64,000 nt of DNA. Source: Nostoc sp. GTDB lineage: Bacteria > Cyanobacteriota > Cyanobacteriia > Cyanobacteriales > Nostocaceae. The stretch lies in the NCBI RefSeq assembly GCF_036916655.1, contig NZ_JBALFY010000011.1, positions 36,569 through 100,568 on the forward strand. Direction: 5' to 3'. Position numbers and translations under genes: made by a program. Shown here in pieces: positions 5,076-58,879 of this stretch. Within the stretch, counting starts at the first letter, position 1, and the number at the start of each line of letters is the position of its first letter. The notes beneath the pieces were generated by a model. The model was not told where the DNA came from. It worked only from the letters and a program-made list of their open reading frames with translations, and searched no databases.

Positions 5076-5213
5076 GGATTGGGGAAGGTGGGGCCCCCTC
5101 TGGGGTAATGGGGACTGGGGATTGGGGAAGAATGGATTTTTTCATTCATAATTTATCATTAATACCTAATCCCTAATTTGTAATCCCCAATCCCTAACTC
5201 CTAATCACTTGCT

Positions 5214-7448: not shown

Positions 7449-7591
7449 AACTCAATACCCTTGGTTTTACGAAATACCTTTTAGGGGCATACAGATGTAT
7501 ACCCCTAAAGTTGATTTATTTGGAAATCATATTTAATTTTTCTAGTTCTATATCTAAATAATCGAGCAGTATTGGGATGCGATCGCCTACG

Positions 7592-7702
7592 CCCAGATTT
7601 CTCACGCATAGTGTAGGCCTCAGGGGAAGAGGAGTGTGGGGAGTAAGACTTCTTCCCCATCCTCCCACACCCCTTGGATTTCTCACCTGTGAGAAATCCA
7701 GG
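7592..7702. mobile_element. MITE family A, copy 1 (111 bp, 14-bp terminal inverted repeats, 5-bp flanking duplication CTACG)
   Basis: Ends CCCAGATTTCTCAC / GTGAGAAATCCAGG; CTACG at 7587-7591 and 7703-7707; second copy at 17117-17236. Confidence 0.8.
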
Positions 7703-7778
7703 CTACGGTGGGGTAAAACGTCATCCTTGGTGGAAGATAAGCAATAATCGAGTAACATCCAGATTCAGGAGTTGGTGC

Positions 7779-8405: not shown

Positions 8406-8518
8406 GCGCAGTTTTTTAGTAGATTTTTGTTTCTATTAAAAGACAAAAAATAAAACTTAATGTACAGTCATTGTGTCGCAAATCACAATTTATCGTAAAT
8501 TTTATTAGAGGGATAGAT

Positions 8519-9997
8519 ATGGCTCAACTGAATGGTGTAATGATGCAGTACTTCCATTGGTATATCCCTCCAGATGGCAATCTTTGGAATGAATTTAAAG
8601 ATAAAGTCAAAGAGTTAGCTGATGCAGGTGTTACATCTGTTTGGCTACCCCCAGCTTACAAAGGAACAGGGGGTGGCTACGATGTCGGCTATGGAGTCTA
8701 TGATATATACGATCTAGGCGAGTTTGACCAGAAAGGCTCGGTTCGGACAAAGTACGGCACAAAAGACGAGTATATCGCTGCTGTTAAAGCGGCTAAAGCT
8801 GCTGGCATTCGAGTATATGCTGATGTTGTGCTTAACCACAAGTTAGGTGCAGACAAAGAAGAAGAAGTGGAAGCAACGCCCTATAGTCCAGACGATCGCA
8901 CCCAGCCCATCGGTGAGATGCAAACAATTAAAGTGTGGACTCACTTTACCTTTCCAGGTCGCCAAGGCAAATACTCCGATCTGGAATGGCACTGGTGGCA
9001 CTTCGATGCGGTTGATTACAACGTTTACAACGAAGGTGAGAACGCAATTTATCTATTCAAAGATAAAAAATTTGATGATAACGTTGACCTGGAAAAAGGC
9101 GCTTTCGACTATCTCATGGGATGCGATCTGGATATGGAAAGTCCAGAAGTGCGCGAGGAGTTGAATCGCTGGGGTGAGTGGTTTGTAGAAACCACTGATG
9201 TAGATGGCTTTCGTTTTGATGCGGTTAAACACGTCAGAGCAGGCTTTTTCCCAGAATGGCTGCAACACTGTCGCCAAAAGGCTGGTCGCGATCTTTTTGC
9301 CGTCGGTGAATATTGGTCTTATGAAGTTGAAGCGCTGCACCATTTCATTAGCATCACCGGTGGCGATGTGTTGCTGTTTGATGCGCCATTGCACTATAAC
9401 TTTAGCGCTGCCAGCAAACAAGGCAATGACTACGATCTGCGGCAGATATTTGATAACACCTTGGTGCAACAGCAACCTGCTTTAGCCGTCACCTTAGTAG
9501 AGAATCATGATTCTCAACCCTTGCAGTCGTTGGAGTCTGTAGTAGAAAGCTGGTTTAAACCGTTAGCTTATGCGTTGATTCTACTGCGAAGTGATGGTTA
9601 TCCCTGTATCTTCTATGCGGATTACTATGGTGCTAATTACAAGGATACGGGCAGCGATGGCAATGAGCATGAGATTTGGCTCGATAGTCACAAATGGCTA
9701 ATTGATAAATTTTTGCACGTTCGTCAAACCTATGCCTATGGCGACCAATACGATTATTTCGATCACGCCAATACAATCGGCTGGACACGCTTAGGAGATG
9801 AAGAACATCCTGGCGGTATCGCGGTTGTTCTGAGTAATGGAGGAGAAGGAACTAAGTGGATGGAAGTTGGGCAACCCAACACCACTTACATTGATATTAC
9901 TGAACATATCAGCGAACCTGTGACAACGAATGATGAGGGCTGGGCTGATTTTCGATGCGATGCTGGTTCTGTTTCTGTGTGGGTTCCACAGTCTTAG
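8519..9997 (+). CDS. amyA: Alpha-amylase (GH13, Bacillus liquefying/AmyA type)
   Basis: MMQYFHWY, GFRFDAVKH, VGEYWS, VENHDSQP catalytic motifs; AGAGGGA ribosome-binding site before ATG 8519. Confidence 0.92.
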   Translation: MAQLNGVMMQYFHWYIPPDGNLWNEFKDKVKELADAGVTSVWLPPAYKGTGGGYDVGYGVYDIYDLGEFDQKGSVRTKYGTKDEYIAAVKAAKAAGIRVYADVVLNHKLGADKEEEVEATPYSPDDRTQPIGEMQTIKVWTHFTFPGRQGKYSDLEWHWWHFDAVDYNVYNEGENAIYLFKDKKFDDNVDLEKGAFDYLMGCDLDMESPEVREELNRWGEWFVETTDVDGFRFDAVKHVRAGFFPEWLQHCRQKAGRDLFAVGEYWSYEVEALHHFISITGGDVLLFDAPLHYNFSAASKQGNDYDLRQIFDNTLVQQQPALAVTLVENHDSQPLQSLESVVESWFKPLAYALILLRSDGYPCIFYADYYGANYKDTGSDGNEHEIWLDSHKWLIDKFLHVRQTYAYGDQYDYFDHANTIGWTRLGDEEHPGGIAVVLSNGGEGTKWMEVGQPNTTYIDITEHISEPVTTNDEGWADFRCDAGSVSVWVPQS

Positions 9998-41418: not shown

Positions 41419-43716
41419 ATGAGAATCTTGCTAATCGAAGATGAAGAGGTTTTAGCAAGTGTCTTGTTGAAGTCGCTTACTAAACAACATTATGTTGTTG
41501 ATGTAGTACAAGACGGACAAATGGGTTGGGAATATACGCAAAGTACTAACTACGACTTGCTCCTAATAGATGTTGGACTTCCGAAACTGGACGGTATTAC
41601 ATTGTGTCAGCGATTGCGTTCTGGTGGTTGTTTCACTCCCATTTTGCTGATGACGGCGAAAGATGGTAATAGAGAACGGATTCAGGGACTTGATGCAGGT
41701 GCAGACGATTATCTGATCAAACCTTTAGATTTGGAAGAACTGCAAGCACGGATACGGGCACTAATCCGTCGGGGCGATCGCCCCCGTACCCCAATACTGG
41801 AAGTAAGCGCACTACGACTAGACCCTAGTAGTTGCGAGGTTAAATATAACAACAAACTGCTGGAATTAACAGCCAAAGAATACAGCTTACTAGAGTTATT
41901 TCTACGGAATCCATCGCGTGTTTTTAGTCGGGGGGATATCATTGAACACCTGTGGACTTTTGACGATCCACCCCAAGAGGAGACTGTAAAATCACACATT
42001 AAATATTTACGACAAAAGTTGAAAGCCGCTGGAGCAGTAGACTGGATTGAAAATGTTTATGGTTTGGGATATCGGCTGAATCCTGGAAGAGGAGAGGCAG
42101 CAGAGAGCAGGAAGCAACGGGAAAAAGAAAAACCTCAAATCCCTAGTCGTGATGTTGAACAGCAGTTTAAGCAAGCAATGGGCGGCTTGTGGCAGCAATA
42201 TCAGGGGTTGATGGTGCAGCGGTTGAACGTATTGCAAGAATTTGCAGCCGCATTATCAAGTAAAACGCTGACTAAAGAATTGCGGCAATCGGCAGAACGA
42301 GAGGCGCACAAACTAGCTGGTGTCTTGGGAATGTTTGAGCAAGACAATGGCACTCAAATAGCGCGGAAAATTGAACAAATTTTAGGTAAAGATGGTGATT
42401 TTGCCGCAGGTGAAAAGCGGCAATTGCTGTCACTGATTGAAGATTTGGGTAGCTTAATCAATCTGATGGGGCAAAATGCAGATAACCAGATTTCAGGTGC
42501 GATCGCACCTGAAATTAGTACCCGATTGATATTAGTTGACCCCAATCCGCAACTAGGCGATCAGCTGCAACAACTGGTTGAAGGCTGGCAGCAAATCTCC
42601 AACTTAGAGGAGGCAAAAAACGTTCTACAAACCACATCACCCGATTTAGTAGTCTTAAATGTCGATGATGCCGGGTGGCGTAAAGAAAGCTTGGCATTAC
42701 TTTCGGACTTAGCAACACGTACCCCACCCGTACCCGTTCTCGTGCTGGCTGCCACTGATGAGTTAGCAGAACGGGTAACTTTCGCTCAGTACGGGGCGCG
42801 GGGTTTTCTGGTTAAGCCTGTAACAGCTGCTCAGGTTTGGGATGTTTCGTCTCAACTATTACAACGCACTCGTTCTTTACGGGTAAATATACTAGCAGTA
42901 GATGACGACCCGCTAATTTTAGCAACACTGCGCCCAATGTTAGAACCTTGGGGCATACGAATGACCGGATTAGAGAATCCGCTACGTTTCTGGGAAGTAC
43001 TGCAATCTACTGCACCAGATTTGTTGATTTTGGATGTAGAAATGCCTCATGTCACTGGTATCGAACTTTGCCAAGCAGTTCGTACCGATCCCCGATGGCA
43101 GGAATTACCAATTGTGTTTCTGACTGCTCACCGAGAGATGGAAACTGTGCAGCAAGTGTTTGCTGTTGGGGCCGATGATTATGTGGTTAAACCTGTTGTT
43201 GGGGCAGAATTGTTGGCACGCATTACCCATCGTTTAGAACGCAGCCGTTTACTACAGTCCCTTTCTAGCAAAGATTCTTTAACCGGATTAGCAAATCAGT
43301 TTCAGTCTAACCGCGACTTGCAGAATCTAATTGCTCAAGCCGAGAAAAATCAGCAATCTGTTTGCTTGGCGATTTTAAGCGTGACTGATTTTCGGCAAAT
43401 TAATATTAAATATGGTCATCAGGCTGGAAACCAGGTATTGCAAAGATGGAGTCGTTTATTTCAATTGGGATTTTGCAGTGGTGAAGTGCTGGGTTATTGG
43501 GGTAATGGTGAATTTGTCATGGGAGTTTCTGGGTTAACCAAAACAGAAATCAGCGATCGCCTTAACGACATTTTAACTACCCTCCGTCAGCAAATATTTA
43601 CAGCCTTCGATGGCGATCGCTTTCAGGTAACATGTAATTTTGCTGTAGTTGAATACCCCAGTGATGGACTAACGATCCAATCACTATATCAAGTTGCCGC
43701 TGGGCGTAATTTTTAA
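41419..43716 (+). CDS. Multidomain response regulator: REC-wHTH-Hpt-REC-REC-degenerate GGDEF
   Basis: OmpR-type N-terminus, Hpt REAHKLAG, receivers DLVVLNV and DLLILDV, GGDEF position reads GNGEF. Confidence 0.88.
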   Translation: MRILLIEDEEVLASVLLKSLTKQHYVVDVVQDGQMGWEYTQSTNYDLLLIDVGLPKLDGITLCQRLRSGGCFTPILLMTAKDGNRERIQGLDAGADDYLIKPLDLEELQARIRALIRRGDRPRTPILEVSALRLDPSSCEVKYNNKLLELTAKEYSLLELFLRNPSRVFSRGDIIEHLWTFDDPPQEETVKSHIKYLRQKLKAAGAVDWIENVYGLGYRLNPGRGEAAESRKQREKEKPQIPSRDVEQQFKQAMGGLWQQYQGLMVQRLNVLQEFAAALSSKTLTKELRQSAEREAHKLAGVLGMFEQDNGTQIARKIEQILGKDGDFAAGEKRQLLSLIEDLGSLINLMGQNADNQISGAIAPEISTRLILVDPNPQLGDQLQQLVEGWQQISNLEEAKNVLQTTSPDLVVLNVDDAGWRKESLALLSDLATRTPPVPVLVLAATDELAERVTFAQYGARGFLVKPVTAAQVWDVSSQLLQRTRSLRVNILAVDDDPLILATLRPMLEPWGIRMTGLENPLRFWEVLQSTAPDLLILDVEMPHVTGIELCQAVRTDPRWQELPIVFLTAHREMETVQQVFAVGADDYVVKPVVGAELLARITHRLERSRLLQSLSSKDSLTGLANQFQSNRDLQNLIAQAEKNQQSVCLAILSVTDFRQINIKYGHQAGNQVLQRWSRLFQLGFCSGEVLGYWGNGEFVMGVSGLTKTEISDRLNDILTTLRQQIFTAFDGDRFQVTCNFAVVEYPSDGLTIQSLYQVAAGRNF

Positions 43717-43895: not shown

Positions 43896-46778
43896 GTGAC
43901 CGAACCAGGAAGTTATAAAGATACTGTAAACTTACCCAAGACTAACTTTGATATGCGGGCAAACGCCATCAAGCGCGAGCCTGAAATCCAAAAATTTTGG
44001 GAAGAAAATAAAATTTACGATCGCCTCTTTGAAAATAACCCCGGCGAATTATTTATACTGCACGATGGGCCTCCCTACGCTAATGGCTCACTCCATATTG
44101 GTCATGCCTTAAATAAAATTCTCAAAGATATTATTAATCGCTACCAACTACTAAAAGGTCGTAAAGTTCGCTACGTTCCTGGCTGGGATTGTCACGGATT
44201 GCCAATTGAGTTAAAAGTTTTGCAGAACATGAAGTCAGCAGAACGGCAGAATTTAACACCTTTACAACTGCGGCAAAAAGCGAAAGAATTTGCTCTAGCT
44301 ACGGTAGACGACCAGCGCCAAAATTTTAAACGCTACGGTATTTGGGGCGATTGGGACAACCCTTATCTAACTCTGAAGCCGGAATACGAAGCGGCTCAAA
44401 TTGGCGTATTTGGTCAGATGTTCTTAAAAGGCTATATCTATCGCGGTTTGAAGCCGGTTCACTGGAGTCCTAGTTCTAAAACAGCTTTAGCGGAAGCTGA
44501 GTTGGAATATCCAGAAGGTCACGTTTCCCGCAGTATCTATGCAGCTTTCCCAATCACGAGTTTGGCGTCAGCTGTAAAACCACTGTTGGCGGAATATCAG
44601 TCAGATTTGGGTGTGGCTATCTGGACAACTACACCTTGGACAATTCCGGCGAATTTGGCTGTGGCGGTGAACGCGGATTTGAATTATGCAGTGGTGGAAG
44701 TTTCCCACCCAGAAGCACAGGCGCAGAGTAATTTCAAATACCTGATTGTTGCTGCTGACTTAGTAGAACGTTTATCTTCAACGTTGGGAGTTGAGTTAAC
44801 TCTAAAAGCCACGTTCAAGGGGAATGATTTAGAACATACTACTTACCGTCATCCTCTATTTGACCGCGAAAGTCCGATTGTTGTGGGCGGTGATTACATC
44901 ACAACTGAGTCGGGTACTGGGTTGGTACATACTGCACCTGGTCATGGTCAAGAAGACTACATTGTTGGTCAGCGCTACGGTTTGCCCATCCTTGCACCAG
45001 TCGATGACAATGGCAATTTTACCGAAGAAGCGGGACAATTTGCGGGGTTAAATGTGCTGGGTGATGGAAATCAGGCGGTAATTGATGCATTAACGGTTGC
45101 TGGTTCCTTGTTGAAAGAAGAAGCATATCCCCACAAGTACCCTTATGATTGGCGGACGAAAAAACCAACGATTTTCCGCGCGACTGAACAATGGTTTGCT
45201 TCGGTGGAAGGATTTAGAGAAGAAGCACTAAAGGCGATCGCCACGGTAAAATGGATTCCAGCCCAAGGTGAAAATCGCATCACGCCAATGGTAGCGGAAC
45301 GTTCCGATTGGTGTATATCTCGTCAGCGTGCTTGGGGTGTACCCATTCCCGTTTTCTACGATGAAGCCACGGGAGAACCACTGCTGAATGAGGAAATTAT
45401 CAATCACGTTCAAGGAATCATCGCCGAAAAAGGTTCTGATGCTTGGTGGGAACTTTCGGTTGAGGAATTATTACCAGAATCCTATCGCCAAAATGGCAAG
45501 TCGTACCGCAGAGGTACAGACACAATGGATGTATGGTTTGATTCTGGCTCATCTTGGGCTGCTGTCGCTCAACAGCGTTCAGAGTTACACTACCCTGCTG
45601 AGATATATTTGGAAGGTTCCGACCAACATCGCGGCTGGTTCCAGTCAAGTTTGCTCACCAGTGTAGCGGTAAATGACATTGCACCTTACAAAACTGTGCT
45701 AACTCACGGCTTCGCTTTGGACGAACAAGGGCGAAAGATGAGTAAGTCAGAAGGTAATGTGGTTGACCCCAATACAATTATTGAAGGCGGGAAAAATCAA
45801 AAAGTAGAACCAGCCTACGGTGCAGATGTCTTGCGATTATGGGTATCATCGGTAGACTACTCCGGCGATGTCCGCATTGGGAAAAACATCATCAAACAGA
45901 TGAATGATGTTAGAGGCAAAATTCGCAATACAGCACGGTTTTTGTTGGGTAGCTTGGATGATTTTGACCCCGAAAAAGATGCAGTCCCCTTTGAAGAATT
46001 GCCAGAACTTGACCGTTATATGTTGCACCGCATCACCGAAGTGTTTGAGGAAGTAACAGAAGCTTTTGAGAGTTTCCAATTCTTCCGCTTCTTCCAAACA
46101 GTGCAGAATTTCTGCGTCGTAGATTTATCCAACTTCTATTTAGATGTTGCCAAAGATAGACTCTACATTAGTGCAAAAGATGCTTTCCGCCGTCGCAGTT
46201 GTCAAACGGTGCTGAAGATAGCAATAGATAATTTAGCTAGAGCGATCGCACCAGTATTATCCCACACCGCCGAAGATATCTGGCAATATCTCCCTTACAA
46301 AACACCTTACAAATCAGTGTTTGAAGCCGGTTGGATTCAGGTAGAGGAAAAATGGCGTAATCCTGAGTTAGCAGAATTTTGGCAAGCGCTGCGACAACTC
46401 CGCACCGATGTTAATAAGGTCTTAGAACAAGCCAGGATAGAAAAACTCATTGGTTCTTCCCTGGAAGCCAAAGCTTTGATTCATATATCTCACAAACAGT
46501 TAGGCGATGCTATCAAAGCCTTTAATCCTGTTAAAGGTAACGGGATTGACGAACTGCGGTATTTATTGCTGACTTCTCAGGTGGAATTATTAGATTCGGC
46601 TCAAGGGTTGCAAGGATTAGAATACACCGCGCAGACAGAAGACTGGACAATTGCTGTAGTAAAGGCAGATGGGCAAAAATGCGATCGCTGTTGGAACTAC
46701 TCTACTCGTATGGGAGAATCAGCAGAACATCCCTTAATTTGCGAACGATGCGTTGCCGCCTTAGCCGGAGAATTCTAG
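43896..46778 (+). CDS. ileS: Isoleucine--tRNA ligase
   Basis: HIGH and KMSKS motifs, C-terminal Zn finger KCDRCW. Confidence 0.98.
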   Translation: MTEPGSYKDTVNLPKTNFDMRANAIKREPEIQKFWEENKIYDRLFENNPGELFILHDGPPYANGSLHIGHALNKILKDIINRYQLLKGRKVRYVPGWDCHGLPIELKVLQNMKSAERQNLTPLQLRQKAKEFALATVDDQRQNFKRYGIWGDWDNPYLTLKPEYEAAQIGVFGQMFLKGYIYRGLKPVHWSPSSKTALAEAELEYPEGHVSRSIYAAFPITSLASAVKPLLAEYQSDLGVAIWTTTPWTIPANLAVAVNADLNYAVVEVSHPEAQAQSNFKYLIVAADLVERLSSTLGVELTLKATFKGNDLEHTTYRHPLFDRESPIVVGGDYITTESGTGLVHTAPGHGQEDYIVGQRYGLPILAPVDDNGNFTEEAGQFAGLNVLGDGNQAVIDALTVAGSLLKEEAYPHKYPYDWRTKKPTIFRATEQWFASVEGFREEALKAIATVKWIPAQGENRITPMVAERSDWCISRQRAWGVPIPVFYDEATGEPLLNEEIINHVQGIIAEKGSDAWWELSVEELLPESYRQNGKSYRRGTDTMDVWFDSGSSWAAVAQQRSELHYPAEIYLEGSDQHRGWFQSSLLTSVAVNDIAPYKTVLTHGFALDEQGRKMSKSEGNVVDPNTIIEGGKNQKVEPAYGADVLRLWVSSVDYSGDVRIGKNIIKQMNDVRGKIRNTARFLLGSLDDFDPEKDAVPFEELPELDRYMLHRITEVFEEVTEAFESFQFFRFFQTVQNFCVVDLSNFYLDVAKDRLYISAKDAFRRRSCQTVLKIAIDNLARAIAPVLSHTAEDIWQYLPYKTPYKSVFEAGWIQVEEKWRNPELAEFWQALRQLRTDVNKVLEQARIEKLIGSSLEAKALIHISHKQLGDAIKAFNPVKGNGIDELRYLLLTSQVELLDSAQGLQGLEYTAQTEDWTIAVVKADGQKCDRCWNYSTRMGESAEHPLICERCVAALAGEF

Positions 46779-46863
46779 TAAATATACGTTAATTCGCCGA
46801 ACTTCTCCCTATTTTTAACTAAATCTCCAGTCTTTCCCTCTCCAAATCGGAGAGGGATTGTTT

Positions 46864-47095
46864 TACGTAGTAAAACGAGGGAGAGGTCTTTTGAGTCAGC
46901 GCTGAAAATAGATATTTTACGTAATACACATTATAGTCATTTTGTAAAGTGCGTAAGTCCTAAGGGCAATATATTTTAGAACAAAAAAATCTAGTATTTT
47001 TACTGAAGATGGCTACGTATTTTAACTGTATCTTCTTTAAAGAAAGGGAAGCCGCTAGATTGTTAAGAAAATACAAAAGTATGGATTAATACGTA
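46864..47095. promoter_or_regulatory. Four TACGTA palindromes upstream of the decarboxylase (candidate operator sites)
   Basis: TACGTA at 46864, 46918, 47014 and 47090; no known factor assigned. Confidence 0.4.
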
Positions 47096-47145
47096 GATTT
47101 TTGACTAGAACATCCATTAACTCAAAATTCAAGAGAGAAAAAGAT

Positions 47146-48297
47146 ATGTCAGATACAGTTGCTAAAGAATTGGCAGATTTTTTGCTGCAAATAGAACAGC
47201 GATCGCAGTTTCACGCAGGTTATCCATATAATTTAAGTTGTGACTACAGTGCGATCGGCAAATTTTTCAATTTTCTGTTGAATAATGCTGGAGATCCTTA
47301 CGTAGAGCCAGATTTTGGACTGCATTCTCGGAAGTTTGAGCAAGAAGTATTATCTTTTTTTGCTAACCTCTATAAAATTCCAGAAAATAAGTTTTGGGGT
47401 TATGTTACTGCTGGCGGAACTGAAGGTAATTTATATGGAATATTCTTAGCAAGAGAAATCTACCCTAATGGGATTCTTTACTCATCACAAGATTCTCATT
47501 ACTCAATACCCAAAGCAGCCAAATTATTCCGCATCCAACACAATGTTGTTAATTCGCAAATTAACGGAGAGATGAATTATGAGCATTTTGAACAACTCAT
47601 TAGCGAAAACCGCAATTGTCCAGCGATTGTAAATTTAAATATTGGGACTACTGTCAAAGGTGCGATTGATAACTTAGACAAAGTTCTAGAAATTTTAGAG
47701 CGCAATCAGATAAAAGATTACTATATTCATTGCGATGCTGCACTTTCAGGATTAATATTACCTTTTCTAGATGGCGCTCCCCAAGTTAACTTTCAAAAAC
47801 CCATAGATAGTGTAGCTATTTCTGCTAAATTCATTGGTTCTCCCTTGCCTTGCGGTGTTGTTTTAACTAAGAAAAAATGGGTAGAAAAAGTTGAAACAGC
47901 AATTGAATATATCGGTTCAACAGATACAACAATTCTAGGTTCTAGAAACGGTCACACACCTCTGATTCTCTGGTATGCAATAAAAACAAGAGGTTATCAC
48001 GGATTAGCTAGAGAAGCAAAGACCTGTATTGATAACGCCCAATATCTTTTCCAACAACTTAAAATTAGAGAATATCCATGTATGCTCAATGATTTTTCCA
48101 ATACCGTAGTGTTTCAAAAACCTTCTCAAAGGTTAATTAAAAAGTGGCAGTTAGCAACTTGTGAAAACTGGGTACACCTGATAGTCATGCAAAATATAAA
48201 TCGGGATAAAATCGATATTTTTGTGAACGAACTTCTGTTAGAAGAAGGGTTAGTTAATAATGTCGATAATTTCCAGCTACAACCAGCACTACACTAA
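47146..48297 (+). CDS. Group II PLP-dependent amino-acid decarboxylase (histidine/serine decarboxylase family)
   Basis: GGTEGNLYG, SHYSIPKAA, GTTVKGAID, IHCDAALSG, KFIGSPLPCG, GSRNGH. Confidence 0.85.
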   Translation: MSDTVAKELADFLLQIEQRSQFHAGYPYNLSCDYSAIGKFFNFLLNNAGDPYVEPDFGLHSRKFEQEVLSFFANLYKIPENKFWGYVTAGGTEGNLYGIFLAREIYPNGILYSSQDSHYSIPKAAKLFRIQHNVVNSQINGEMNYEHFEQLISENRNCPAIVNLNIGTTVKGAIDNLDKVLEILERNQIKDYYIHCDAALSGLILPFLDGAPQVNFQKPIDSVAISAKFIGSPLPCGVVLTKKKWVEKVETAIEYIGSTDTTILGSRNGHTPLILWYAIKTRGYHGLAREAKTCIDNAQYLFQQLKIREYPCMLNDFSNTVVFQKPSQRLIKKWQLATCENWVHLIVMQNINRDKIDIFVNELLLEEGLVNNVDNFQLQPALH

Positions 48298-48364
48298 TTA
48301 ATCTAGATGTAGTTAAGCGACTTTATGGTTAGAGTATTCTGAATTCTGAATTCTGACTCCTGGT

Positions 48365-51300
48365 TTATCTCTTTAAAAAGTTTTTTCCGTACAAGTTAGC
48401 AGCAAGTAGTAGTTCCACTTCTGCACGTTCCATAGGTGGTAAGAAAAAATACCCTTGTCCATAATCACATTGCAAAGCCTTCAATTGTGCTAATTGCTCT
48501 ACAGTTTCTATCCCTTCTGCCGTTACAGACATATTCAAATTATGAGCCAATGTTACGATCGCTCGAATAATTTCTAAATTTTCTCCTCGACTACCTATAC
48601 TGGTGACAAAAGAGCGATCGATCTTAAGAGTTTTGATTGGTAGACGGTGCAAATAACTTAAGGATGAATAACCAGTACCAAAATCATCCATGTGCATCTC
48701 GACATTCAGCGCTGTTAACTGAGAAAGTACAGTGATAGCCAATTCAAAATTATCCATCAGCAAGGTTTCAGTAATCTCCAATTTCAAGCAGCACGGCTCC
48801 AATCCAGTTTGCTGTAATATATGTTTCACCTCTTTAAACACATCAGGTTGCGTAATTTGTTTACCAGAAAAATTCACACTAATTGTCAGAGGTGTTGAGG
48901 TAGGAAATTGTTTGTGCCATGTATGCATTTGGTGACAGGCTTCATACAGCACCCATTGTCCGATACTAACAATCATTCCAGTTTCCTCAGCCAGAGGAAT
49001 AAAATCTTGAGGAGAAATCAGTCCTCGTTCTGGATGATACCAACGTATCAGGGCCTCAAATCCAATAATTTTGCCAGTTGTCAGTGAAACAATTGGCTGG
49101 TAATCAAGGCGAAATTCTTCTTGCTTGAGTAGCGCATGACGTAAAGCAGTTTCTAACTCCAAAAGCAAAGCTGCACCCTCGTGCATCTTGGGATCAAAAA
49201 CCTCATAACGTGCCTTCCCAAGTGATTTAGCGCAATACATTGCCACATCAGCATCGCGTAGAATCTGCGCTGCTTGCTCATAATCTGCTTTACTTAAAGC
49301 AATGCCAATACTAACGTTAGTAAACACCCGATGCTCATTTAATTGAAATGGCAAAGCTAACACTTTTTTAATTCGCTCGGCTACCTGTATGGCGGTACTG
49401 ATATCCTCAATTTCTTCAATTAAGATTGTGAACTCATCTCCACCAAAACGAGCAACTATATCTCCACCTCGCAAAACTGACTTTAGCCGATGAGAAATTG
49501 CAATCAAAAGTTGATTTCCTAGTAGATGTCCAAGGCTGTCATTAACAACTTTAAAGCGGTCTAAGTCTAAGAAAAGTACAGCAAATAAATAATTATTTTC
49601 CTGTTTACTATGTTCTATTGCCTGCTGCACCCGCTCCATAAACAATCGTTGATTAGGTAATCCAGTTAGCCCATCATGAAGACTATTATGCAGTAATTGT
49701 TCTTGTGCTTCTTGACGCTTGATAATGTCTTGTTGCAGTTGTTGATTAACTCTAATAAGTTCAATAGTACGTTCTAGCACCAACTGCTCAAGCTGATAAC
49801 GATACTGGACTAATTCTTCCTCTGCTAGCTTCCGCTTAGTGATGTCACGGACAATCACAACATACTCCCGTAGCTGCGAATTAAATGGCTGTGAAATAGT
49901 CGATTCAACAATTCGTAAACCTTGGTTGATTTTTAAAGTTTGCTCACTTCTAATAGACCATTCCTCCGGTTTGCCGCGATAGCAGATTAGAATTTGATTC
50001 AAATTTTGCCCAAGTAACTGCTGAATACTTGTTTGAAATAATTCTTCAGCAGCGGCGTTTGTTTGAGAGATTGTACCGTCTTCATCTAAGACTAAAACTG
50101 TGTCGGGAACAGTATCGAGAGTAGTAATAAATAGGTTTCTGGCTTGTTTGCGTGCTTCGTCAATAGCAATAATTTGTGGTAAAGTTGTCCAGCAAGCGAT
50201 CGCTACTCCTGCAAAAGAAAGCGTTACTAATAAAATAGCTAGTAAAGAGTTTTGAGGATTGTCAGAAAATCTATCTAAAAAATCACGAATAATCCAACTG
50301 ATTGTAGCAGTAGTACAAATTAATGACACTAAAACAATCACTTGTAATACTACAAAATCGGGGTTATTTCTAGTAGACCTAGTATCGTAACGCTGTGTCC
50401 ACCAGTCCGGGTGTAATGGTGCAAATCTAAGGCGACGTAGTGCTAAATCTCCGCTCATCAAAATAATCGGTAATAATAAGCCCACTAAGAAATCTCTCCA
50501 ACTCCAAGCTAAACCTCCCACTATTAGCACTACCGCTTCTACCAAGAAAAAACCCAGTGACCACCAAGGCCATAACACGTGGGGTTTACCGCGACACAGC
50601 CATAATCCCAGATGTAATCCCATAATTGACATGAGATAACATGTACCTGCCACTGTGACAAGTTGAGATACATTTCCCAAATTTAGACAAAGCAAACTGA
50701 GTATAAAGGTAACTAAAATTGCAGGCCCAAGGACACCTTGACGAGAAACCAATGCAAATATGGGAGAAAGCTGTCGATCGCAGGCAAGTTGGTATAATAT
50801 CCGAGGAGAGTTGGAAACCGCCGTAGCAGAACTTAAAAGGCAAGATATAGTAATCAGAAGTGTTACTAAAAAAGGGGCAGATTCACCCCAAAAAGGCTTA
50901 GAAGCTGCCACCAGATTTAAGAACGTATCGTTACCTATTATAGGATTTTGAGCCGAACACATTAATACCCAAGAACCACCTAAAAACACTGGAGGAATTA
51001 ACCAAGCAGCAACAGTTAAGAACTTTAAAGTTTTATATGGGTGGCGACTATCAGCAACAAAAGAAGAAGTAGTTTCACAAGCATAAATTGAATAGCTAGC
51101 TAAAAAAAACCACTTTGCCCATTCTTCAAAACTCAAACTATGTGTGCTAGTTGAGATCAATTTAAAACTAGCAGATGAGAAGACTAACCAGAATACGCCT
51201 TGAATACAAAACAATAACATTAATAAAATCGCTGGGAACACAAAAAACAGATGCAGGAGCGCTAAAGCACGAGTACCACTGAAGGCTAAAATAAAAGGAA

Positions 51301-51748
51301 TCGCTGTAAATAAAACTCTTAATAAAGTTTCTGGACAAGAAATACCTAATGTTTCAAAATTGACTTTAATTAGGTCGGTGAGAATAATCGCATACAATGC
51401 TGGTGCTGCTGCCCAGCTAAAAAAGTATCCTAAAGCTGCGTAACGGCCTAATACAGGAAAGTTCTTTAATAGCCTTGTGGTATAGTTTGGTGTTCCTCCA
51501 GCGATATCTGGCCAATGTCTACCTAAACTTTGTACCTGCAAGTTAAGTAAAAAAGAAATAATCGTGCCAAAAAACCAAACTAAGATAGCTTTTGGCCCTA
51601 ACGCTGCATGAATGATAGGGGCAGTACCAATCCATCCAACATGACCTGTTAACCCAAAGCCCCAGGTTTCGAGATAACTCAGAGTCCGTGGTAGGCGTAT
51701 TAGCAAATGCTGATTGTTCTCTACCCGCGCAGAATCGTTACTAACCAT
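48365..51748 (-). CDS. APC-superfamily amino-acid permease fused to PAS-GGDEF-EAL
   Basis: About 14 hydrophobic segments with APC-like AGGTPNY and SPRILY, then PAS, intact RFGGDEF, FEALIRW and DDFGTGYSSL. Confidence 0.88.
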   Translation of the reverse strand: MVSNDSARVENNQHLLIRLPRTLSYLETWGFGLTGHVGWIGTAPIIHAALGPKAILVWFFGTIISFLLNLQVQSLGRHWPDIAGGTPNYTTRLLKNFPVLGRYAALGYFFSWAAAPALYAIILTDLIKVNFETLGISCPETLLRVLFTAIPFILAFSGTRALALLHLFFVFPAILLMLLFCIQGVFWLVFSSASFKLISTSTHSLSFEEWAKWFFLASYSIYACETTSSFVADSRHPYKTLKFLTVAAWLIPPVFLGGSWVLMCSAQNPIIGNDTFLNLVAASKPFWGESAPFLVTLLITISCLLSSATAVSNSPRILYQLACDRQLSPIFALVSRQGVLGPAILVTFILSLLCLNLGNVSQLVTVAGTCYLMSIMGLHLGLWLCRGKPHVLWPWWSLGFFLVEAVVLIVGGLAWSWRDFLVGLLLPIILMSGDLALRRLRFAPLHPDWWTQRYDTRSTRNNPDFVVLQVIVLVSLICTTATISWIIRDFLDRFSDNPQNSLLAILLVTLSFAGVAIACWTTLPQIIAIDEARKQARNLFITTLDTVPDTVLVLDEDGTISQTNAAAEELFQTSIQQLLGQNLNQILICYRGKPEEWSIRSEQTLKINQGLRIVESTISQPFNSQLREYVVIVRDITKRKLAEEELVQYRYQLEQLVLERTIELIRVNQQLQQDIIKRQEAQEQLLHNSLHDGLTGLPNQRLFMERVQQAIEHSKQENNYLFAVLFLDLDRFKVVNDSLGHLLGNQLLIAISHRLKSVLRGGDIVARFGGDEFTILIEEIEDISTAIQVAERIKKVLALPFQLNEHRVFTNVSIGIALSKADYEQAAQILRDADVAMYCAKSLGKARYEVFDPKMHEGAALLLELETALRHALLKQEEFRLDYQPIVSLTTGKIIGFEALIRWYHPERGLISPQDFIPLAEETGMIVSIGQWVLYEACHQMHTWHKQFPTSTPLTISVNFSGKQITQPDVFKEVKHILQQTGLEPCCLKLEITETLLMDNFELAITVLSQLTALNVEMHMDDFGTGYSSLSYLHRLPIKTLKIDRSFVTSIGSRGENLEIIRAIVTLAHNLNMSVTAEGIETVEQLAQLKALQCDYGQGYFFLPPMERAEVELLLAANLYGKNFLKR

Positions 51749-52187
51749 TAGTTTCTCAGTGAGTTTCTTAGTGAGATTTACTTACCTTTTCACTCAATAG
51801 CTGAATCTCACCAATTATAGCTTCCGTATAACTGCTGAACTTTAGAAAAAGATAAATTATTTGTCACTGAATTGTGGATTTTAGACTTTAGAATGACCCC
51901 ATACCTACAAGAATTTTTTTTTAATAGAGAATTTTAAAATGGGGATTTAAGATTTGTTTTACGTAGCTTTTTTTTTTGCCGAGTAAGTATAAATTCTCTT
52001 TCTTTAAAGCTTTATAAAAATCGAAAGATTCAGATTTCCGACCTAATTTAATAGATATATGCTGAAATTAATTATTATTTGTCGAAAACTCTTGTGTAAA
52101 CGCTAATTTTCACGTCTCTACATTCATTTTTACTCATATTGCTAATTTCTTGAAGAATTCAGAAGTCAGAATGGGCTACGCCCCGCT

Positions 52188-52381
52188 CATTTGTGTCAAC
52201 TTAAGCTAAAACCCTTTTCAAACCTCATTTCCAGCCGGAGGCTGGAAATGCTGCTCCTGGTGGCTCTGCCGCCAATAAGAGAGGCGGAGCCTCAAAGACG
52301 AGCATTCTCAGTCTCCGACTGGGAACGAGGCAATCTAAAAGCTAGTTATAGACTTACTTTTACGTTAAGTTGACACAAATG
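52188..52381. mobile_element. MITE family B, copy 3 (194 bp, different interior, exact 9-bp flanking duplication CGCCCCGCT)
   Basis: Ends CATTTGTGTCAACTTAA / TTAAGTTGACACAAATG (perfect 17 bp); duplication at 52179-52187 and 52382-52390. Confidence 0.85.
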
Positions 52382-52453
52382 CGCCCCGCTCCTGACTACT
52401 GAATTCTGTTGGATAAGTCGGAAATCGTTTAGCTCATCAATGATTAAGTAGGG

Positions 52454-53338
52454 CTACAGCTTTTGCAACAACTCCTGAGTTAACTGAAAGAATGCTTTTG
52501 AACCTGCTGATTGGGGAGCATTTAAAACAGCTGGCATAAAACTATCAACAGCTTTAGCAACATTGACATCAACTGGTATTTGTACTTTACAAATTTTTTC
52601 TACACCAAAATCTTCAACAACGCGGTGCATTACCTGTTTGTAGTATCTACCAGTGAGCAGGTTAGCACTGGACATACTAAATACGATTCCCAGCATTTTT
52701 ATATTTATCTTGGTTTCATGTCCGTGACTATCTTTTAATTGGGCAATTCGTCTTTCTAGCAGTTGAATACCCACTACAGATAATGGTTCTGGTTTAGCAG
52801 GAAGTATGTAGAAATCACTGGCAGCTAAAGCGCTACGAGTCAATAGATTATAGCCAGGGGCACAATCGAGCAGGATAAAATCATATTCTTGACGTACTGG
52901 TTTTAAGATATTATTGATCAAAACCCTTTCAAAGCGATTCCAAATCGTTTCAAAGTCTTGTTCGCCCAAAGCAGTTGCTTGCTTATGCAGCATTTCTGAA
53001 ACAACAAATTCATCATATAAATCGATGTCTCCTGGTAATAAATCCAGTCCGGGAAGATTACAAACCGGGGATTGAATGATATCCTGAATTGTGAGTTTTG
53101 CTTGTGGATCTGGATTGATAACTTCGTCTATCAGATATCTAAATGTCTTGCTTTGTTTACGGCGCTTGGCAAAATCTAAAGGCGACATCAAACTGAGTGT
53201 GGCGCTAATTTGGCTATCTAAATCAAGGACAAGCACCCGCTTGCCATGATTTTTAGCTAAACAGGTAGCTAAATTGACGGTGAGAGTGGTTTTACCAACG
53301 CCACCTTTCATATTTGCAGTAGCAATTACATATCCCAT
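52454..53338 (-). CDS. ParA/Soj-family ATPase (orphan)
   Basis: Deviant Walker A NMKGGVGKTT, LDLDSQ, DCAPG. Confidence 0.9.
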   Translation of the reverse strand: MGYVIATANMKGGVGKTTLTVNLATCLAKNHGKRVLVLDLDSQISATLSLMSPLDFAKRRKQSKTFRYLIDEVINPDPQAKLTIQDIIQSPVCNLPGLDLLPGDIDLYDEFVVSEMLHKQATALGEQDFETIWNRFERVLINNILKPVRQEYDFILLDCAPGYNLLTRSALAASDFYILPAKPEPLSVVGIQLLERRIAQLKDSHGHETKINIKMLGIVFSMSSANLLTGRYYKQVMHRVVEDFGVEKICKVQIPVDVNVAKAVDSFMPAVLNAPQSAGSKAFFQLTQELLQKL

Positions 53339-53834: not shown

Positions 53835-54245
53835 ATGACTTACGATTCTGAAGATGTAGAACAAATCCTGCAAAAAGCACTCACTCGTAAAGACAAAGGT
53901 GAATTTTCACGAGAACAGCTTTTAGAAATGGCATCTGAGTTAGGTATTTCTTCTAAGACGTTGGAAGCAACTGAACAAAAATGGTTGGCTCAACAAGAAG
54001 AGGAACGTTTACGACACAGATTTAATACTTTCCGACGCAGAGCCTTTGGGACACACGTTGTTTCTTTCCTCGCGGTGAATTTATTCCTCATTCTCTTAAA
54101 CTTAATCACTAGTCCTAGTTATTTTTGGGCTATTTTTCCAGTATTAGGATGGGGATTAGGACTATTTTTTCATTGGTGGAGTGTTTATCAGAGCAAATCA
54201 GAGGATTACGAGATCGCTTTTCAGAAATGGCGTACACAAATTTAA
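53835..54245 (+). CDS. 2TM-domain protein
   Basis: Helical N-terminus, two transmembrane segments, WAIFPVLGWGLGLFFH. Confidence 0.8.
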   Translation: MTYDSEDVEQILQKALTRKDKGEFSREQLLEMASELGISSKTLEATEQKWLAQQEEERLRHRFNTFRRRAFGTHVVSFLAVNLFLILLNLITSPSYFWAIFPVLGWGLGLFFHWWSVYQSKSEDYEIAFQKWRTQI

Positions 54246-56230: not shown

Positions 56231-58879
56231 CTAAATTTTTAAATTTTGAAACTTTGTAAATTGTGGATTGAACAAAAGTTTCGCTGTACCCGTAGGCCCA
56301 TTGCGGTGTTTAGCTATAATAACTTCTGCAATGCCGCGATCGGGAGTATCGGGAGAGTAATATTCATCGCGGTACAACATGATTACTAAATCCGCGTCTT
56401 GTTCAATTGAATTGTGAACAATAATATTATTTGCAACAAAATTATGCAAACCAGGAACGGTGAGGTCAAAAACTTCTTCCTCGCCGCTATATTGGATTGA
56501 AACTATTTCATCCCAATAAACATCACTTTTGGCAAGAGCGATCAGTTTAGATGATTTAACAACGTTGCCGACTTTTAAAGCTCTTTCTCGACTTAAATTT
56601 ACTTTATAAAGGGTAGAGCCACAATAGGATGTTCCAATGGAGGAATGTAATAGCCGTGTGGTCAAGCCAACAGATTGCATTGCAGGTACAACCTGTGTTT
56701 TCCAAACATCTTTGGGAATTATATCTCTGTTAGTGTTATGAATACACTTTTCAAGGTGTTCAGCAATTTTTTCTAATGAACTTAGCTTATATTCTCCTAC
56801 TGCTCCAACGTTTTGAATGAATAACTCAAGGTCAGGCTTGCCAGTGATTGTTACATGATATTGGTTTCTACCCTTGCCAACTTGAGGAACTGTTCTTAGT
56901 GTTGCATTAATACCAAGCCTTAATAAAAGTGTCTGTACATCAAAAGCTAGTCTCTCACTACTGCTTGCATAAAATGCAATAGGTCTTGGCTTTTTTCCTG
57001 CAATTAAGTTGATACAACCATCTGTACTCCAAAGGTGTCTTAGAAAGCAACCTATTAACTCTTGGGGTTGTGAGAACAATTCTTGAGGTACAAATTTTTC
57101 ATAAGACCTTAAACCAAAAACACCGAGAGAGTCTAGCCATTTGGCTATTGGATTTCTTACACGATGAGTTAGATTCTGTGCTGCGGATAAGTAAACTTGA
57201 TACCACCCACGTTCAGGTGAAATTCTAGGAACAATTGAATATCCAAAAACTTCTGTTGCCAAGAAAGCAACATTCTGAGCTAAATCTATCTCTCTGGTAG
57301 TGTACTGTATGGTATGACGTGGCAATGTACAACCGTCACCAATTAAATGCCCTAATAATGCAACTTCCGCATAAGTCATGGTCTTTTTACCAAAACTAGA
57401 GAGATGTCTTGGTAAACATAGATGTTGTTTAGGAGTTAATTCATCAAGTCTTTTCCAGCCATTAATTGTTAAAAACTTGTGATTACCTGTGGCACGTATT
57501 TTGCGGCCCAATCGAGTTGTTAAAGTAAACAGAGGCTTTACACCGGTGGAAAAAGCATTGCTAACAATTGCTTTTTCTAGCTGCATTGTAGCTTCGTTCA
57601 ACGCCCAAACTGCAAAACCAGATTTACCTGCTAATTCCTTAATTGGTACTTGCAATCCTGTATCTGCTAATGTCACCAGACTATCGCCTGCTAAACAACC
57701 AGATTCTCTCAAATCAGATAACATCGGGCGTTTATTAGTACGCGCTTCCACCCCGCGACTCAACTGAGATAAAGCAATAACTGGTACAGATAATTCACGC
57801 GCTAAACCTTTGAGTTGACGCGTAATTTTTGATAATTCTTGTACGCGATTATCGCCTGCTCCTTCCATCAATTGCAGGTAATCTATTACAATTAATCCTA
57901 ATTCAGTTCCTATTTCAGCTTGCAGTCTTCTTGACTGACTACGCATTTGTGTGACTGTAATATTCGGCGTGTCGTCAATATAAATTGGCATCTCGGAGAG
58001 GATACCAATAGCACGGCTTAAAGGTTCCCATTGTGTTTGACTTAGGCGGCCAGTTCGCAGATAACTACTTTCAATTTGCGCTTCGCTAGCTAATAGACGT
58101 TGCGTCAGTTGCTCTTTAGACATTTCCAAGCTGAAAAAAGCAACTGGTAATTTATAAGAAGCGGCAATATTATGAGCTAGGTTTAAGCAAAATGCTGTTT
58201 TTCCCATTGATGGCCTGCCAGCGATAATAATCAAATCAGAACGCTGAAAGCCGCTAGTCATAGCATCTAAATCGTAAAATCCGCAGGGAATTCCAGGTAA
58301 AGCGATGCCTTGATTTCTATCTTCAATATCCTGAAAATTATTAATTAAAGTATCAGAAATGTGAACTAAACCCGATTGCGGACGCTCTTGAGTAACGCCG
58401 AAAACTTTCTGTTCTGCCTGATCTAAAACCTGTGGTAACTCGGTTTCTGTCTCGTAACCAAGATGTACAATTTCATTGCCAGCTTTAATTAACTGTCGCC
58501 GCAGATATTTTTCCATCACCAACCCTGCTAAGGCGTCGATGTTAACGGCTGACACTGTACGGTCTACCAGAGTTGCTAATTTATTTCTGCCACCAATGCG
58601 GACTAGCATTTCATTGTCGGTTAGCCAACTGGTAACTGAGAGTAAGTCTGTGGGTTTACCTTGGGTGTGGAGCCTCACAGCTGCCTGATAAATATCTTTG
58701 TGAGCGCTAATGTAAAAAGCTTCGGGAAGGAGGCGATCGCTAACTCGACTAATCGCTTCTGGATCTAGCAAAATACCACCCAAAATCGCTTCTTCCGCTT
58801 CTATATTTTGGGGCGGGAGGCGTAGTTTACCGCCGTAGGCATCGCTACCATCGCCTTGAAAACTCCGTTCTTCAGCCAT
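56231..58879 (-). CDS. dnaB: Replicative DNA helicase with intein
   Basis: PPQNIEAEE, AGRPSMGKT, IDYLQL, SQLSR, DLRESG|intein|SIEQDAD. Confidence 0.97.
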   Translation of the reverse strand: MAEERSFQGDGSDAYGGKLRLPPQNIEAEEAILGGILLDPEAISRVSDRLLPEAFYISAHKDIYQAAVRLHTQGKPTDLLSVTSWLTDNEMLVRIGGRNKLATLVDRTVSAVNIDALAGLVMEKYLRRQLIKAGNEIVHLGYETETELPQVLDQAEQKVFGVTQERPQSGLVHISDTLINNFQDIEDRNQGIALPGIPCGFYDLDAMTSGFQRSDLIIIAGRPSMGKTAFCLNLAHNIAASYKLPVAFFSLEMSKEQLTQRLLASEAQIESSYLRTGRLSQTQWEPLSRAIGILSEMPIYIDDTPNITVTQMRSQSRRLQAEIGTELGLIVIDYLQLMEGAGDNRVQELSKITRQLKGLARELSVPVIALSQLSRGVEARTNKRPMLSDLRESGCLAGDSLVTLADTGLQVPIKELAGKSGFAVWALNEATMQLEKAIVSNAFSTGVKPLFTLTTRLGRKIRATGNHKFLTINGWKRLDELTPKQHLCLPRHLSSFGKKTMTYAEVALLGHLIGDGCTLPRHTIQYTTREIDLAQNVAFLATEVFGYSIVPRISPERGWYQVYLSAAQNLTHRVRNPIAKWLDSLGVFGLRSYEKFVPQELFSQPQELIGCFLRHLWSTDGCINLIAGKKPRPIAFYASSSERLAFDVQTLLLRLGINATLRTVPQVGKGRNQYHVTITGKPDLELFIQNVGAVGEYKLSSLEKIAEHLEKCIHNTNRDIIPKDVWKTQVVPAMQSVGLTTRLLHSSIGTSYCGSTLYKVNLSRERALKVGNVVKSSKLIALAKSDVYWDEIVSIQYSGEEEVFDLTVPGLHNFVANNIIVHNSIEQDADLVIMLYRDEYYSPDTPDRGIAEVIIAKHRNGPTGTAKLLFNPQFTKFQNLKI
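56411..57697 (-). mobile_element. DnaB intein (429 aa) with LAGLIDADG homing endonuclease
   Basis: Starts CLAGD after RESG, ends IIVHN before Ser; block B TGNHKF; motifs LLGHLIGDG and LRHLWSTDG. Confidence 0.95.
58820..58845 (-). mobile_element. 18-nt small dispersed element inserted in a HIP1 site in dnaB
   Basis: Minus strand GCGAT-[GCCTACGGCGGTAAACTA]-CGC; removing it restores GCGATCGC and the peptide SDRLPP. Confidence 0.75.

Follow-up and report, generated by a model that had tools for sequence, protein, structure and literature searches.

Conserved neighbourhood of a decarboxylase and a transporter-shaped c-di-GMP sensor in Nostoc suggests an undescribed amine-signalling pair

A 64,000-nt stretch of the Nostoc sp. 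contig NZ_JBALFY010000011.1 (positions 36,569 to 100,568; hereafter the window, whose own numbering is used below) carries two genes that face each other. One encodes a pyridoxal 5'-phosphate (PLP)-dependent decarboxylase, and the other a membrane protein in which a transporter-shaped module precedes PAS, GGDEF and EAL domains. The conserved neighbourhood of this decarboxylase and this sensor linked to cyclic diguanosine monophosphate (c-di-GMP) suggests an undescribed amine-signalling pair. On balance, we consider it probable that the two form a functional enzyme and sensor pair, in which the decarboxylase would make a small amine, the APC-fold module of the sensor would bind it, and the balance between the GGDEF and EAL activities would shift. 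What was established here is the structure of the genes, the integrity of the domains, the fold, the conservation of the linkage and the parallel diversification of the two genes. The two open reading frames (ORFs) are convergent with 67 bp between their stop codons, exactly as an initial annotation made from the sequence alone had claimed, and their opposite strands confirm its remark that they are not an operon (Table 1). The best matches were lichen-associated Nostoc metagenome-assembled genomes (MAGs), at 98% protein identity, and a lichen metagenome was the sole sequencing run to contain every sampled word of the sequence.

The pairing was followed from both sides. On the decarboxylase side, 80 Nostocales loci with 80-98% identity were compared, and the sensor gene lay directly downstream and convergent in 77 of the 79 informative ones. 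On the sensor side, also with 80 loci and with a decarboxylase counted within 6 kb, the decarboxylase was adjacent in 73 of 75 informative loci of the sensor clade; the seven loci without it comprised three from other sensor clades, two contig ends and two genomes in which the pair is separated. In the latter, N. spongiaeforme FACHB-130 and Nostoc CHAB 5844, neither gene has been lost, but they lie apart on different contigs (L077 with L349 and L079 with L387; L numbers are our locus labels). Co-occurrence and synteny, which the initial annotation had named as the check on its proposal, were thus found from either gene. Moreover, when only the 13 Nostocales loci at greatest distance were considered (decarboxylase identity ≤85%), 11 had retained the sensor and 6 ParA, whereas IleRS was gone from all of them.

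Beyond the Nostocales, Aliterella and metagenome contigs supplied the closest decarboxylases, at 72-77% identity and sharing the histidine deletion described below. There the pair is divergent, about 200 bp apart, and the sensor orthologue (61-63% identity) ends in HisKA/HATPase domains (Aliterella L084 and L332-L334; metagenome L256, L259, L261, L271 and L305). In neighbour-joining trees, the His-deleted decarboxylases formed a clade with 99% support, and their partner sensors likewise formed a 99% clade, within which the histidine kinase and GGDEF-EAL subclades had 100% support each. Inversion of the pair and exchange of the output domain thus left the two genes side by side while their surroundings changed, and the two co-diversified.

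The initial annotation had also described a permease fused to PAS and to intact GGDEF and EAL domains, and this domain content was recovered. Specifically, aa 33-366 matched AA_permease (PF00324; 41.5 bits, cut-off 24.6), followed by the PAS, GGDEF and EAL domains listed in Table 1. The GGDEF motif is intact (aa 769-773) and accompanied by an RxxD I-site (RGGD, aa 760-763), and the EAL motifs are all present (EALIR 898, EITE 991, DDFGTGYS 1021, KID 1042, EGIE 1078 and QGY 1098, as well as the standard N). Across 89 distinct full-length orthologues, GGDEF was retained in 89, the I-site in 86 and the EAL motifs in essentially all, and to judge from these motifs the protein may be capable of synthesising as well as hydrolysing c-di-GMP.

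An AlphaFold model of aa 1-535, calculated with 43 homologues, reached a pLDDT of 83.8 and a pTM of 0.85. Foldseek matched it with probability 1.0 to LAT1, AdiC, y+LAT1, ApcT, BasC and KimA (target-normalised TM about 0.7, identity about 15%), and on this model the N-terminal module is firmly assigned the APC/LeuT fold. The domain and fold matches all lie well outside what chance would give. The 12-helix core is followed by two extra transmembrane (TM) helices. In the model, the helix at aa 499-534 leaves the membrane toward the PAS domain; the sequence, in turn, shows many positive charges in the loop at aa 437-465, which fits a cytoplasmic location of the output domains. The TM1 motif ETWGFGLTGH (aa 27-36) and the TM6 motif YACETTSSFVADS (aa 222-234, including CETTSSFVADS) are invariant or nearly so across the family. 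Both are the counterparts of the unwound substrate-site segments of APC transporters, which suggests that a ligand pocket with acidic residues has been preserved.

By its sequence relationships, the N-terminal module is better called a sensor than an ordinary permease. A search of the Protein Data Bank (PDB) with the module returned no solved transporter at E ≤1, and on NCBIfam permease models it scored 25 bits (cut-off 690) and 23 bits (cut-off 579) at best. Only 206 relatives were found in 1.84 billion representative proteins, nearly all of them 800-1600 aa long; ordinary permeases of 450-490 aa matched the module only at an E of about 1e-11, with 24-28% identity. In a word-indexed search, the outputs attached to it were most often HisKA/HATPase, and otherwise SpoIIE, GGDEF alone, PAS alone or GGDEF-EAL. 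Because the input module swaps transmitter domains in the manner of a sensor, it is read as an APC-fold receptor domain. The transceptor permease of the initial annotation therefore survives in its fold, while the idea of an ordinary permease that happens to be fused gives way to a small family found almost exclusively in signalling fusions, and sensing of flux is one possibility only. We also considered whether the fused module corresponds to the stand-alone permease beside a Fischerella decarboxylase; this was rejected, with an hhalign probability of 21% and no blastp match.

The decarboxylase matched Pyridoxal_deC (PF00282; 83.3 bits, cut-off 27, E 1.9e-23) and scored 533 bits on the NCBIfam "histidine decarboxylase" equivalog NF002748 (cut-off 305). 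However, AtSerDC, whose serine decarboxylase activity is proven, passes this model as well (464.8 bits, against 590 bits for a true histidine decarboxylase, HDC), so that passing it tells nothing about the substrate. The best PDB matches were the plant enzymes CsAlaDC, an alanine decarboxylase (8JIK, 390 bits), and AtSerDC (8JG7, 381 bits), compared with 310 bits for the bacterial HDC of Photobacterium phosphoreum (7ERV). In the plant enzymes, a single residue of the YP[x] motif fixes specificity, with Tyr111 giving serine and Phe106 alanine (PMC11407765). The corresponding residue here is Tyr28 in GYPYNL (GYPY), aligned to AtSerDC Tyr111, whereas true HDC has GYPE. Bacterial members of the wider family show Y, F, L, C, I, V, A or S at this point, as if substrates had diversified. 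In a neighbour-joining tree, HDC fell outside the group of cyanobacterial enzymes and plant serine and alanine decarboxylases (SerDC and AlaDC). Of the "histidine/serine-type" label in the initial annotation, the serine half is favoured and the histidine half, with histamine as product, is the less likely. An ethanolamine-type amine appears more likely than histamine as the product, and about 100 database entries called "histidine decarboxylase" probably carry the wrong substrate.

Lys228, the His of SHYS, the Asp of HCDAAL and the Tyr of EYIGS align with the CsAlaDC/AtSerDC residues described in PMC11407765 as the PLP-binding lysine, the stacking histidine, the aspartate to the pyridine N1 and the catalytic-loop tyrosine, and all four are present. 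One further residue is missing: the window sequence reads AISA-KFIGSP (region about 47818-47835) where relatives have VSGHKF, so that the His before the PLP-lysine is deleted. This one-residue deletion is conserved in all 133 loci of the decarboxylase clade (including L001-L080, L084, L256 and L259), which indicates that it is real and ancient; the segment reads IS[A/G]-KF across this clade, in place of SGHKF. In plant SerDC/AlaDC, this His forms a hydrogen bond to the PLP phosphate, and it is not among the 13 universally conserved residues named there (PMC11407765). All other PLP ligands are retained in the window enzyme. A second sensor-linked decarboxylase clade has Tyr in place of the His ('SAYK'). 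Both clades paired with permease-type sensors therefore do without this His, whereas all transporter-linked or unlinked relatives keep it. A metagenome scan for further His-to-Tyr type decarboxylases found none and returned mostly distant SGHK-type enzymes. In addition, the C-terminal zinc finger (3 Cys and 1 His) carried by plant SerDC (PMC11407765) is absent, and the protein ends at aa 383 in the Cys-free tail LLLEEGLVNNVDNFQLQPALH.

Related decarboxylases and related sensors have other partners (Table 1). The 'SAYK' clade adjoins a separate permease-sensor clade, and a GYPF clade adjoins a dCache_1-type hybrid histidine kinase. Canonical SGHK enzymes adjoin stand-alone permeases, whose best match was the ethanolamine-permease model TIGR00908 (341 bits; next family 117 bits). 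Meanwhile, the nearest sister sensor clades adjoin an adenylation/methyltransferase/carrier/reductase protein of about 1485 aa (A-MT-T-R), similar to non-ribosomal peptide synthetases (NRPS). This link was seen in four distinct loci (L081, L082, L329 and L330) with differing arrangements and outputs (histidine kinase, GGDEF or GGDEF-EAL), and the sensor-side scan yielded further cases in L335 and L358; in L330 a phosphopantetheinyl transferase follows. Synechocystis sp. PCC 7509 is one carrier of such a reductase and sensor pair. The adenylation specificity code, read by hand with anchors checked on E. coli EntF, was D-I-L-Q-L-G-M-I-W in L081 and L330 and D-I-P-Q-I-T-M-V-W in L082 and L329. 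Against what we take to be the glycine code, DILQLGLIWK, L081 and L330 agree at 8 of the 9 positions read; the tenth (Lys) was not read. Reduction of glycyl or N-methylglycyl thioesters leads to aminoacetaldehyde or ethanolamine-type products. Two-carbon amino-alcohol chemistry is where, as we infer, three lines would meet: a decarboxylase of the serine type, neighbouring transporters that resemble ethanolamine permeases, and a reductase of the glycine type. In L330, a split architecture was also observed, with a 692-aa permease-like protein (4898-6976) followed by a separate 501-aa PAS-GGDEF-EAL protein (7076-8581).

A mechanism can be outlined for the Nostoc pair. The cytoplasmic PLP decarboxylase would convert a small polar amino acid into a small primary amine, most likely L-serine into ethanolamine and less likely histidine into histamine. 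The partner would be a 14-helix membrane sensor whose APC/LeuT core, a fold taken from the model, may serve as the ligand-binding input module. The amine would bind this module or possibly pass slowly through it; the precursor amino acid is a less likely ligand. A rocking-bundle change could then reach the PAS domain by way of TM14 and the helix that continues it into the cytoplasm, and this would shift the balance of the GGDEF cyclase against the EAL phosphodiesterase and so change c-di-GMP. We infer the substrate, the ligand, the side of the membrane on which the ligand is met (cell interior or exterior), the direction of the c-di-GMP change and the phenotype from these features. Surface behaviour would be the likely output, be it motility by type IV pili or hormogonia, aggregation, or development. 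A REC-PATAN-REC response regulator lies 3' of the sensor in the three genome-derived Aliterella-type loci whose sequence extends far enough. Motility or surface behaviour is a plausible output because the sister-lineage sensor is a histidine kinase next to such a PATAN-type regulator, and in Synechocystis regulators of this class target the motor of the type IV pili (bioRxiv 10.1101/2021.06.11.447907; PMC11181946). Such an output fits the biology of c-di-GMP in cyanobacteria.

The linkage can be explained in other ways. The sensor might report the precursor, with the APC module binding or transporting the decarboxylase's amino acid (e.g., serine), its availability passed on to c-di-GMP, and the decarboxylase acting as a metabolic partner, comparable to LysP as the lysine co-sensor of the Cad system. 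Such sensing would account for the conserved linkage equally well; APC-fold proteins typically bind amino acids (compare LAT1, AdiC and ApcT among the structural matches), and TM1 and TM6 motifs that stay invariant whatever the partner enzyme would fit a common amino-acid-type ligand. We nevertheless regard it as unlikely, since other decarboxylase clades adjoin dCache sensors and ethanolamine-permease-like transporters, which point to an amine outside or across the membrane, and since the sister sensor clades adjoin a reductase giving a decarboxy-type product from a different amino acid, for which product sensing is simpler. It is highly improbable, in our view, that the locus is a classical decarboxylase/antiporter pair with an AdiC- or HdcP-type exchanger whose PAS-GGDEF-EAL tail regulates transport, e.g., by c-di-GMP feedback. 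Although pairs of a decarboxylase and an APC exchanger are well established, AdiC is among the best structural matches and the I-site could bind c-di-GMP, the module has no sequence match to solved transporters and scores only 23-25 bits on permease models, and its family almost never occurs unfused. Moreover, the classical transmitters (histidine kinase and SpoIIE) in relatives mark it as an input domain, and the real transporter partner of decarboxylase relatives is a different, ordinary 481-aa permease.

Absence of any functional link, with adjacency as gene order inherited in Nostocales and a sister order, the decarboxylase in ordinary metabolism and the sensor reporting an unrelated signal, is a distinctly poor explanation in our judgement, a little better than the antiporter. 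The amine-signalling reading must answer several observations that weigh against it, some of which favour this absence of a link. The genes are convergent, which rules out co-transcription, and each has its own promoter; most sampled loci come from closely related Nostoc; a 2TM-domain protein near the pair is common to Nostoc and Aliterella loci; and the genes are separated in the two genomes named above. Part of the conservation could therefore be inherited synteny between sister orders. In addition, the trees were neighbour-joining only, L166, a decarboxylase closely related to the others (72% identity), lacks a sensor beside it, and of 80 generic sensor-kinase relatives only one lies near a decarboxylase, the rest of their surroundings showing no conserved enzyme neighbour and only within-genus synteny. 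On the chemical side, loss of the phosphate-ligand His may have altered the activity or the reaction type of the decarboxylase, the substrate assignment is drawn indirectly from one specificity residue and from neighbours in other clades, and the TIGR00908 match of the stand-alone permeases falls under the curated cut-off (341 against 382 bits). To our knowledge, cyanobacteria are not known to need ethanolamine for lipids, and the literature search gave no biochemical or genetic data for any member.

Against an absence of any functional link, the association outlasts every other flanking gene and survives inversion and replacement of the output domains, the decarboxylase and sensor trees mirror each other, and decarboxylases and sensors are paired a second time, in separate clades and in co-directional order. 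The scarcity of decarboxylases near the generic members also speaks against it. Since those members have no conserved enzyme neighbour, the enzyme link is clade-specific rather than family-wide, and the notion that all members of the sensor family are enzyme-linked was rejected.

A broader form of the amine-signalling reading can be offered only tentatively, as a possible but doubtful generalisation: the pair may belong to an undescribed cyanobacterial class of signal-synthase/receptor pairs. The synthase would be a His-less serine-type decarboxylase or a glycine-type A-MT-T-R reductase; the signal, a two-carbon amino-alcohol or amino-aldehyde (ethanolamine, N-methyl derivatives or condensation products); and the receptor, an APC-fold family feeding c-di-GMP enzymes, histidine kinases or SpoIIE phosphatases. 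For Nostoc, lichen symbionts among them, such a system might provide a self-produced amine cue, autocrine, for quorum sensing or between partners, that controls motility, hormogonia, aggregation or symbiosis.

Several known systems resemble the pair in part. AdiA/AdiC, CadA/CadB, GadB/GadC and HdcA/HdcP are established pairs of a decarboxylase and an APC antiporter, in which, as here, the gene of a PLP (or pyruvoyl) decarboxylase adjoins that of an APC-fold membrane protein, AdiC being among the best structural matches. The analogy to AdiA/AdiC drawn by the initial annotation nevertheless fails on architecture: the Nostoc membrane protein is fused to PAS-GGDEF-EAL (a histidine kinase in relatives), belongs to a family almost never found unfused and has no sequence match to solved transporters, and its gene is convergent rather than operonic. 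No stand-alone exchanger co-transcribed with the decarboxylase, as expected of an acid-resistance module, was found. Unlike AdiA and CadA, the Nostoc decarboxylase is a small 383-aa enzyme of the SerDC/HDC type. In the CadC/LysP 'trigger transporter', an APC-fold permease co-senses amino-acid/amine status for a decarboxylase-linked response; there the permease and the regulator are separate and the output is decarboxylase transcription, whereas the Nostoc sensor and its output are one polypeptide acting on c-di-GMP. Signal-synthase/receptor pairs based on amino-acid-derived signals are represented by the NRPS-like A-T-R PvfC signals and the Tdh-derived pyrazinones. The Nostoc locus shares with them an amino-acid-modifying enzyme beside a dedicated membrane sensor, and its sister sensor clades lie beside an A-MT-T-R reductase; it differs in the new receptor type, and release of its product or action between cells would be hypothetical.

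The closest functional precedents are transporter-fold receptors, among which the SSS-fold kinases CbrA/CrbS are one example. Others are Ks-Amt5, an Amt domain fused to a histidine kinase (PMC5764959), and Sd-Amt1, with the architecture Amt-HAMP-GGDEF (PMC11152129). Each of these, like the Nostoc family with its alternative outputs on our reading, places a repurposed transporter fold ahead of a cytoplasmic kinase or diguanylate cyclase as the part that binds the ligand. The Nostoc protein differs in its fold, which is APC/LeuT (amino-acid/amine type) rather than Amt or SSS, in the expected ligand class, and in its output, a GGDEF and EAL tandem reached via PAS. New, too, is the genomic coupling of the module to an enzyme that could make its ligand. 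On the enzyme side, plant SerDC/AlaDC (8JG7, 8JIK; PMC11407765) are the nearest solved structures, sharing the tyrosine equivalent to AtSerDC Tyr111 and all PLP ligands except one; the Nostoc enzyme lacks their zinc finger and the His before the PLP-lysine, and its host is bacterial, where phosphatidylethanolamine synthesis is not expected. Gram-negative HDC (7ERV, NF002748) shares family and length, and its model cut-off is passed, but the Nostoc enzyme differs from it in having GYPY for GYPE, in scoring higher to SerDC and in its position in the tree.

In the literature library searched, which was incomplete, no APC- or permease-fused GGDEF or kinase proteins, no cyanobacterial serine-type decarboxylase and no Nostoc HDC or histamine were found, and a paper on Anabaena c-di-GMP enzymes does not mention a permease domain. 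If the amine-signalling reading is right, c-di-GMP signalling in filamentous cyanobacteria, where almost all known inputs are light or redox, would gain a defined chemical input, and APC/LeuT would join Amt and SSS on the short list of transporter folds recruited as receptors. Nostoc would then take a behavioural cue from a small amine of its own making; in this genus, decisions on motility and hormogonia govern symbioses with plants and in lichens. The pair is directly testable, as it consists of one soluble enzyme and one sensor with cheap candidate ligands.

Table 1. Coordinates of the pair, its parts and its upstream region in the window, and partner genes of related clades (loci by label, with positions where available)
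Feature	Position	Strand	Remarks
ileS	43896-46778		upstream of the decarboxylase gene
Terminator-like hairpin 3' of ileS	46835-46857	+	terminator scan and sequence
Decarboxylase promoter region	46858-47145		
Palindrome GTATGGATTAATAC	47079-47092	+	GTA-N8-TAC, NtcA-box-like; 54-67 bp 5' of the decarboxylase start
Decarboxylase gene	47146-48297	+	ATG 47146, 383 aa; mechanical ORF opens at TTG 47101
Convergent spacer	48298-48364	none	67 bp between the two stop codons
Sensor gene	48365-51748	-	1127 aa; APC-fold module, 2 extra TM helices, PAS, GGDEF, EAL
EAL phosphodiesterase domain	48434-49147	-	aa 868-1105; Pfam E 1.3e-75
GGDEF diguanylate-cyclase domain	49196-49690	-	aa 690-845; Pfam E 3.4e-45; TIGR00254
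PAS region	49799-50131	-	aa about 540-650; PAS, PAS_4, PAS_8 and PAS_9 matches at aa about 540-596 (Pfam)
TM13 and TM14	50144-50356	-	aa about 466-523; AlphaFold2 helices H466-493, H499-534
APC/LeuT-fold 12-helix core	50429-51700	-	aa about 17-440; AlphaFold2 model and Foldseek
'SAYK' decarboxylase clade	L113, L167, L168		partner: separate permease-sensor clade; co-directional, gaps 110-220 bp
Genes downstream of the GYPF decarboxylase clade	L086 5272-10281; L087 11247-16500		partner: dCache_1-HAMP-PAS hybrid histidine kinase, then GAF-guanylate-cyclase-domain protein and receiver
Stand-alone permeases beside canonical SGHK decarboxylases	L085 9700-11145; L152 8277-9719; L249 3924-5354; L278 7148-8563		about 480 aa
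A-MT-T-R genes	L081 848-5311; L082 5534-9991 (duplicate copy L083 144-4601); L329 2525-6991; L330 8668-13107		beside sister sensor clades

The terminator-like hairpin after ileS forms an upstream boundary, so that the decarboxylase gene has its own promoter and 5' region. The terminator scan found no canonical intrinsic terminator in the 67-bp spacer, and an Rfam scan of 46500-52600 at E ≤1 gave no match to a known riboswitch or small RNA. On the downstream side, a ParA-like gene comes next. Of 78 orthologous Nostoc loci, 54 carry the GTA-N8-TAC palindrome at -71 or -67 and 61 have one anywhere within the upstream 250 bp, while more distant loci have ATA-N8-TAC. The motif is enriched across the window as a whole (23 matches against 10.4 expected; none of 100 shuffles reached 23), and the distance of the palindrome upstream of the decarboxylase gene to the -10 box is not canonical. 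This palindrome is a candidate regulatory site for possible control by nitrogen status (NtcA-type), and we offer it as a lead only.

In RNA-seq assemblies of related Nostoc, both genes were present at a depth similar to ileS; one contig breaks at the spacer (X28), and two run through it (X33 and X34). These are assembled contigs from strains of about 90% identity, which show presence rather than regulation and may include DNA carry-over, and their depths are weak evidence that both genes are expressed.

Other genes were observed near the pair or its relatives. The 2TM-domain (PF13239) protein of the window (53835-54245) shares 42% identity with a homologue whose gene lies close to the decarboxylase gene in Aliterella-type loci (L084 10149-10643; L261 4113-4607). 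Either it is a neighbour of ancestral origin or it forms a third component. A short-chain dehydrogenase gene lies 3' of the decarboxylase in Aliterella and in one Nostoc subclade (L084 9148-9954; L078 9408-10172; L077 9342-10106), with none in the window; its product could oxidise an amino alcohol to an amino aldehyde. In one Nostoc subclade, an ORF of 611-613 aa with no Pfam match is found directly 3' of the sensor gene (L078 10514-12355; L077 10194-12029). It overlaps the sensor stop by 11 nt in L078 and stays by the decarboxylase where the sensor has moved away. Two loci with non-cyanobacterial names, L334 (labelled Tatlockia sp. MAG) and L231 (Acetobacteraceae MAG), carry clearly cyanobacterial sensor and decarboxylase genes, and the names probably reflect mis-binning.

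Elsewhere in the window, 41419-43716 encodes an unusual multi-domain regulator with REC, an OmpR-type DNA-binding domain, Hpt, more REC (three Response_reg stretches in total) and GGDEF, and 37409-40183 encodes a phytochrome/GAF histidine kinase. Both were considered as parts of the system and rejected, as neither is a conserved neighbour. Additionally, the DnaB helicase gene at 56231-58879 is split by an intein with a LAGLIDADG endonuclease domain.

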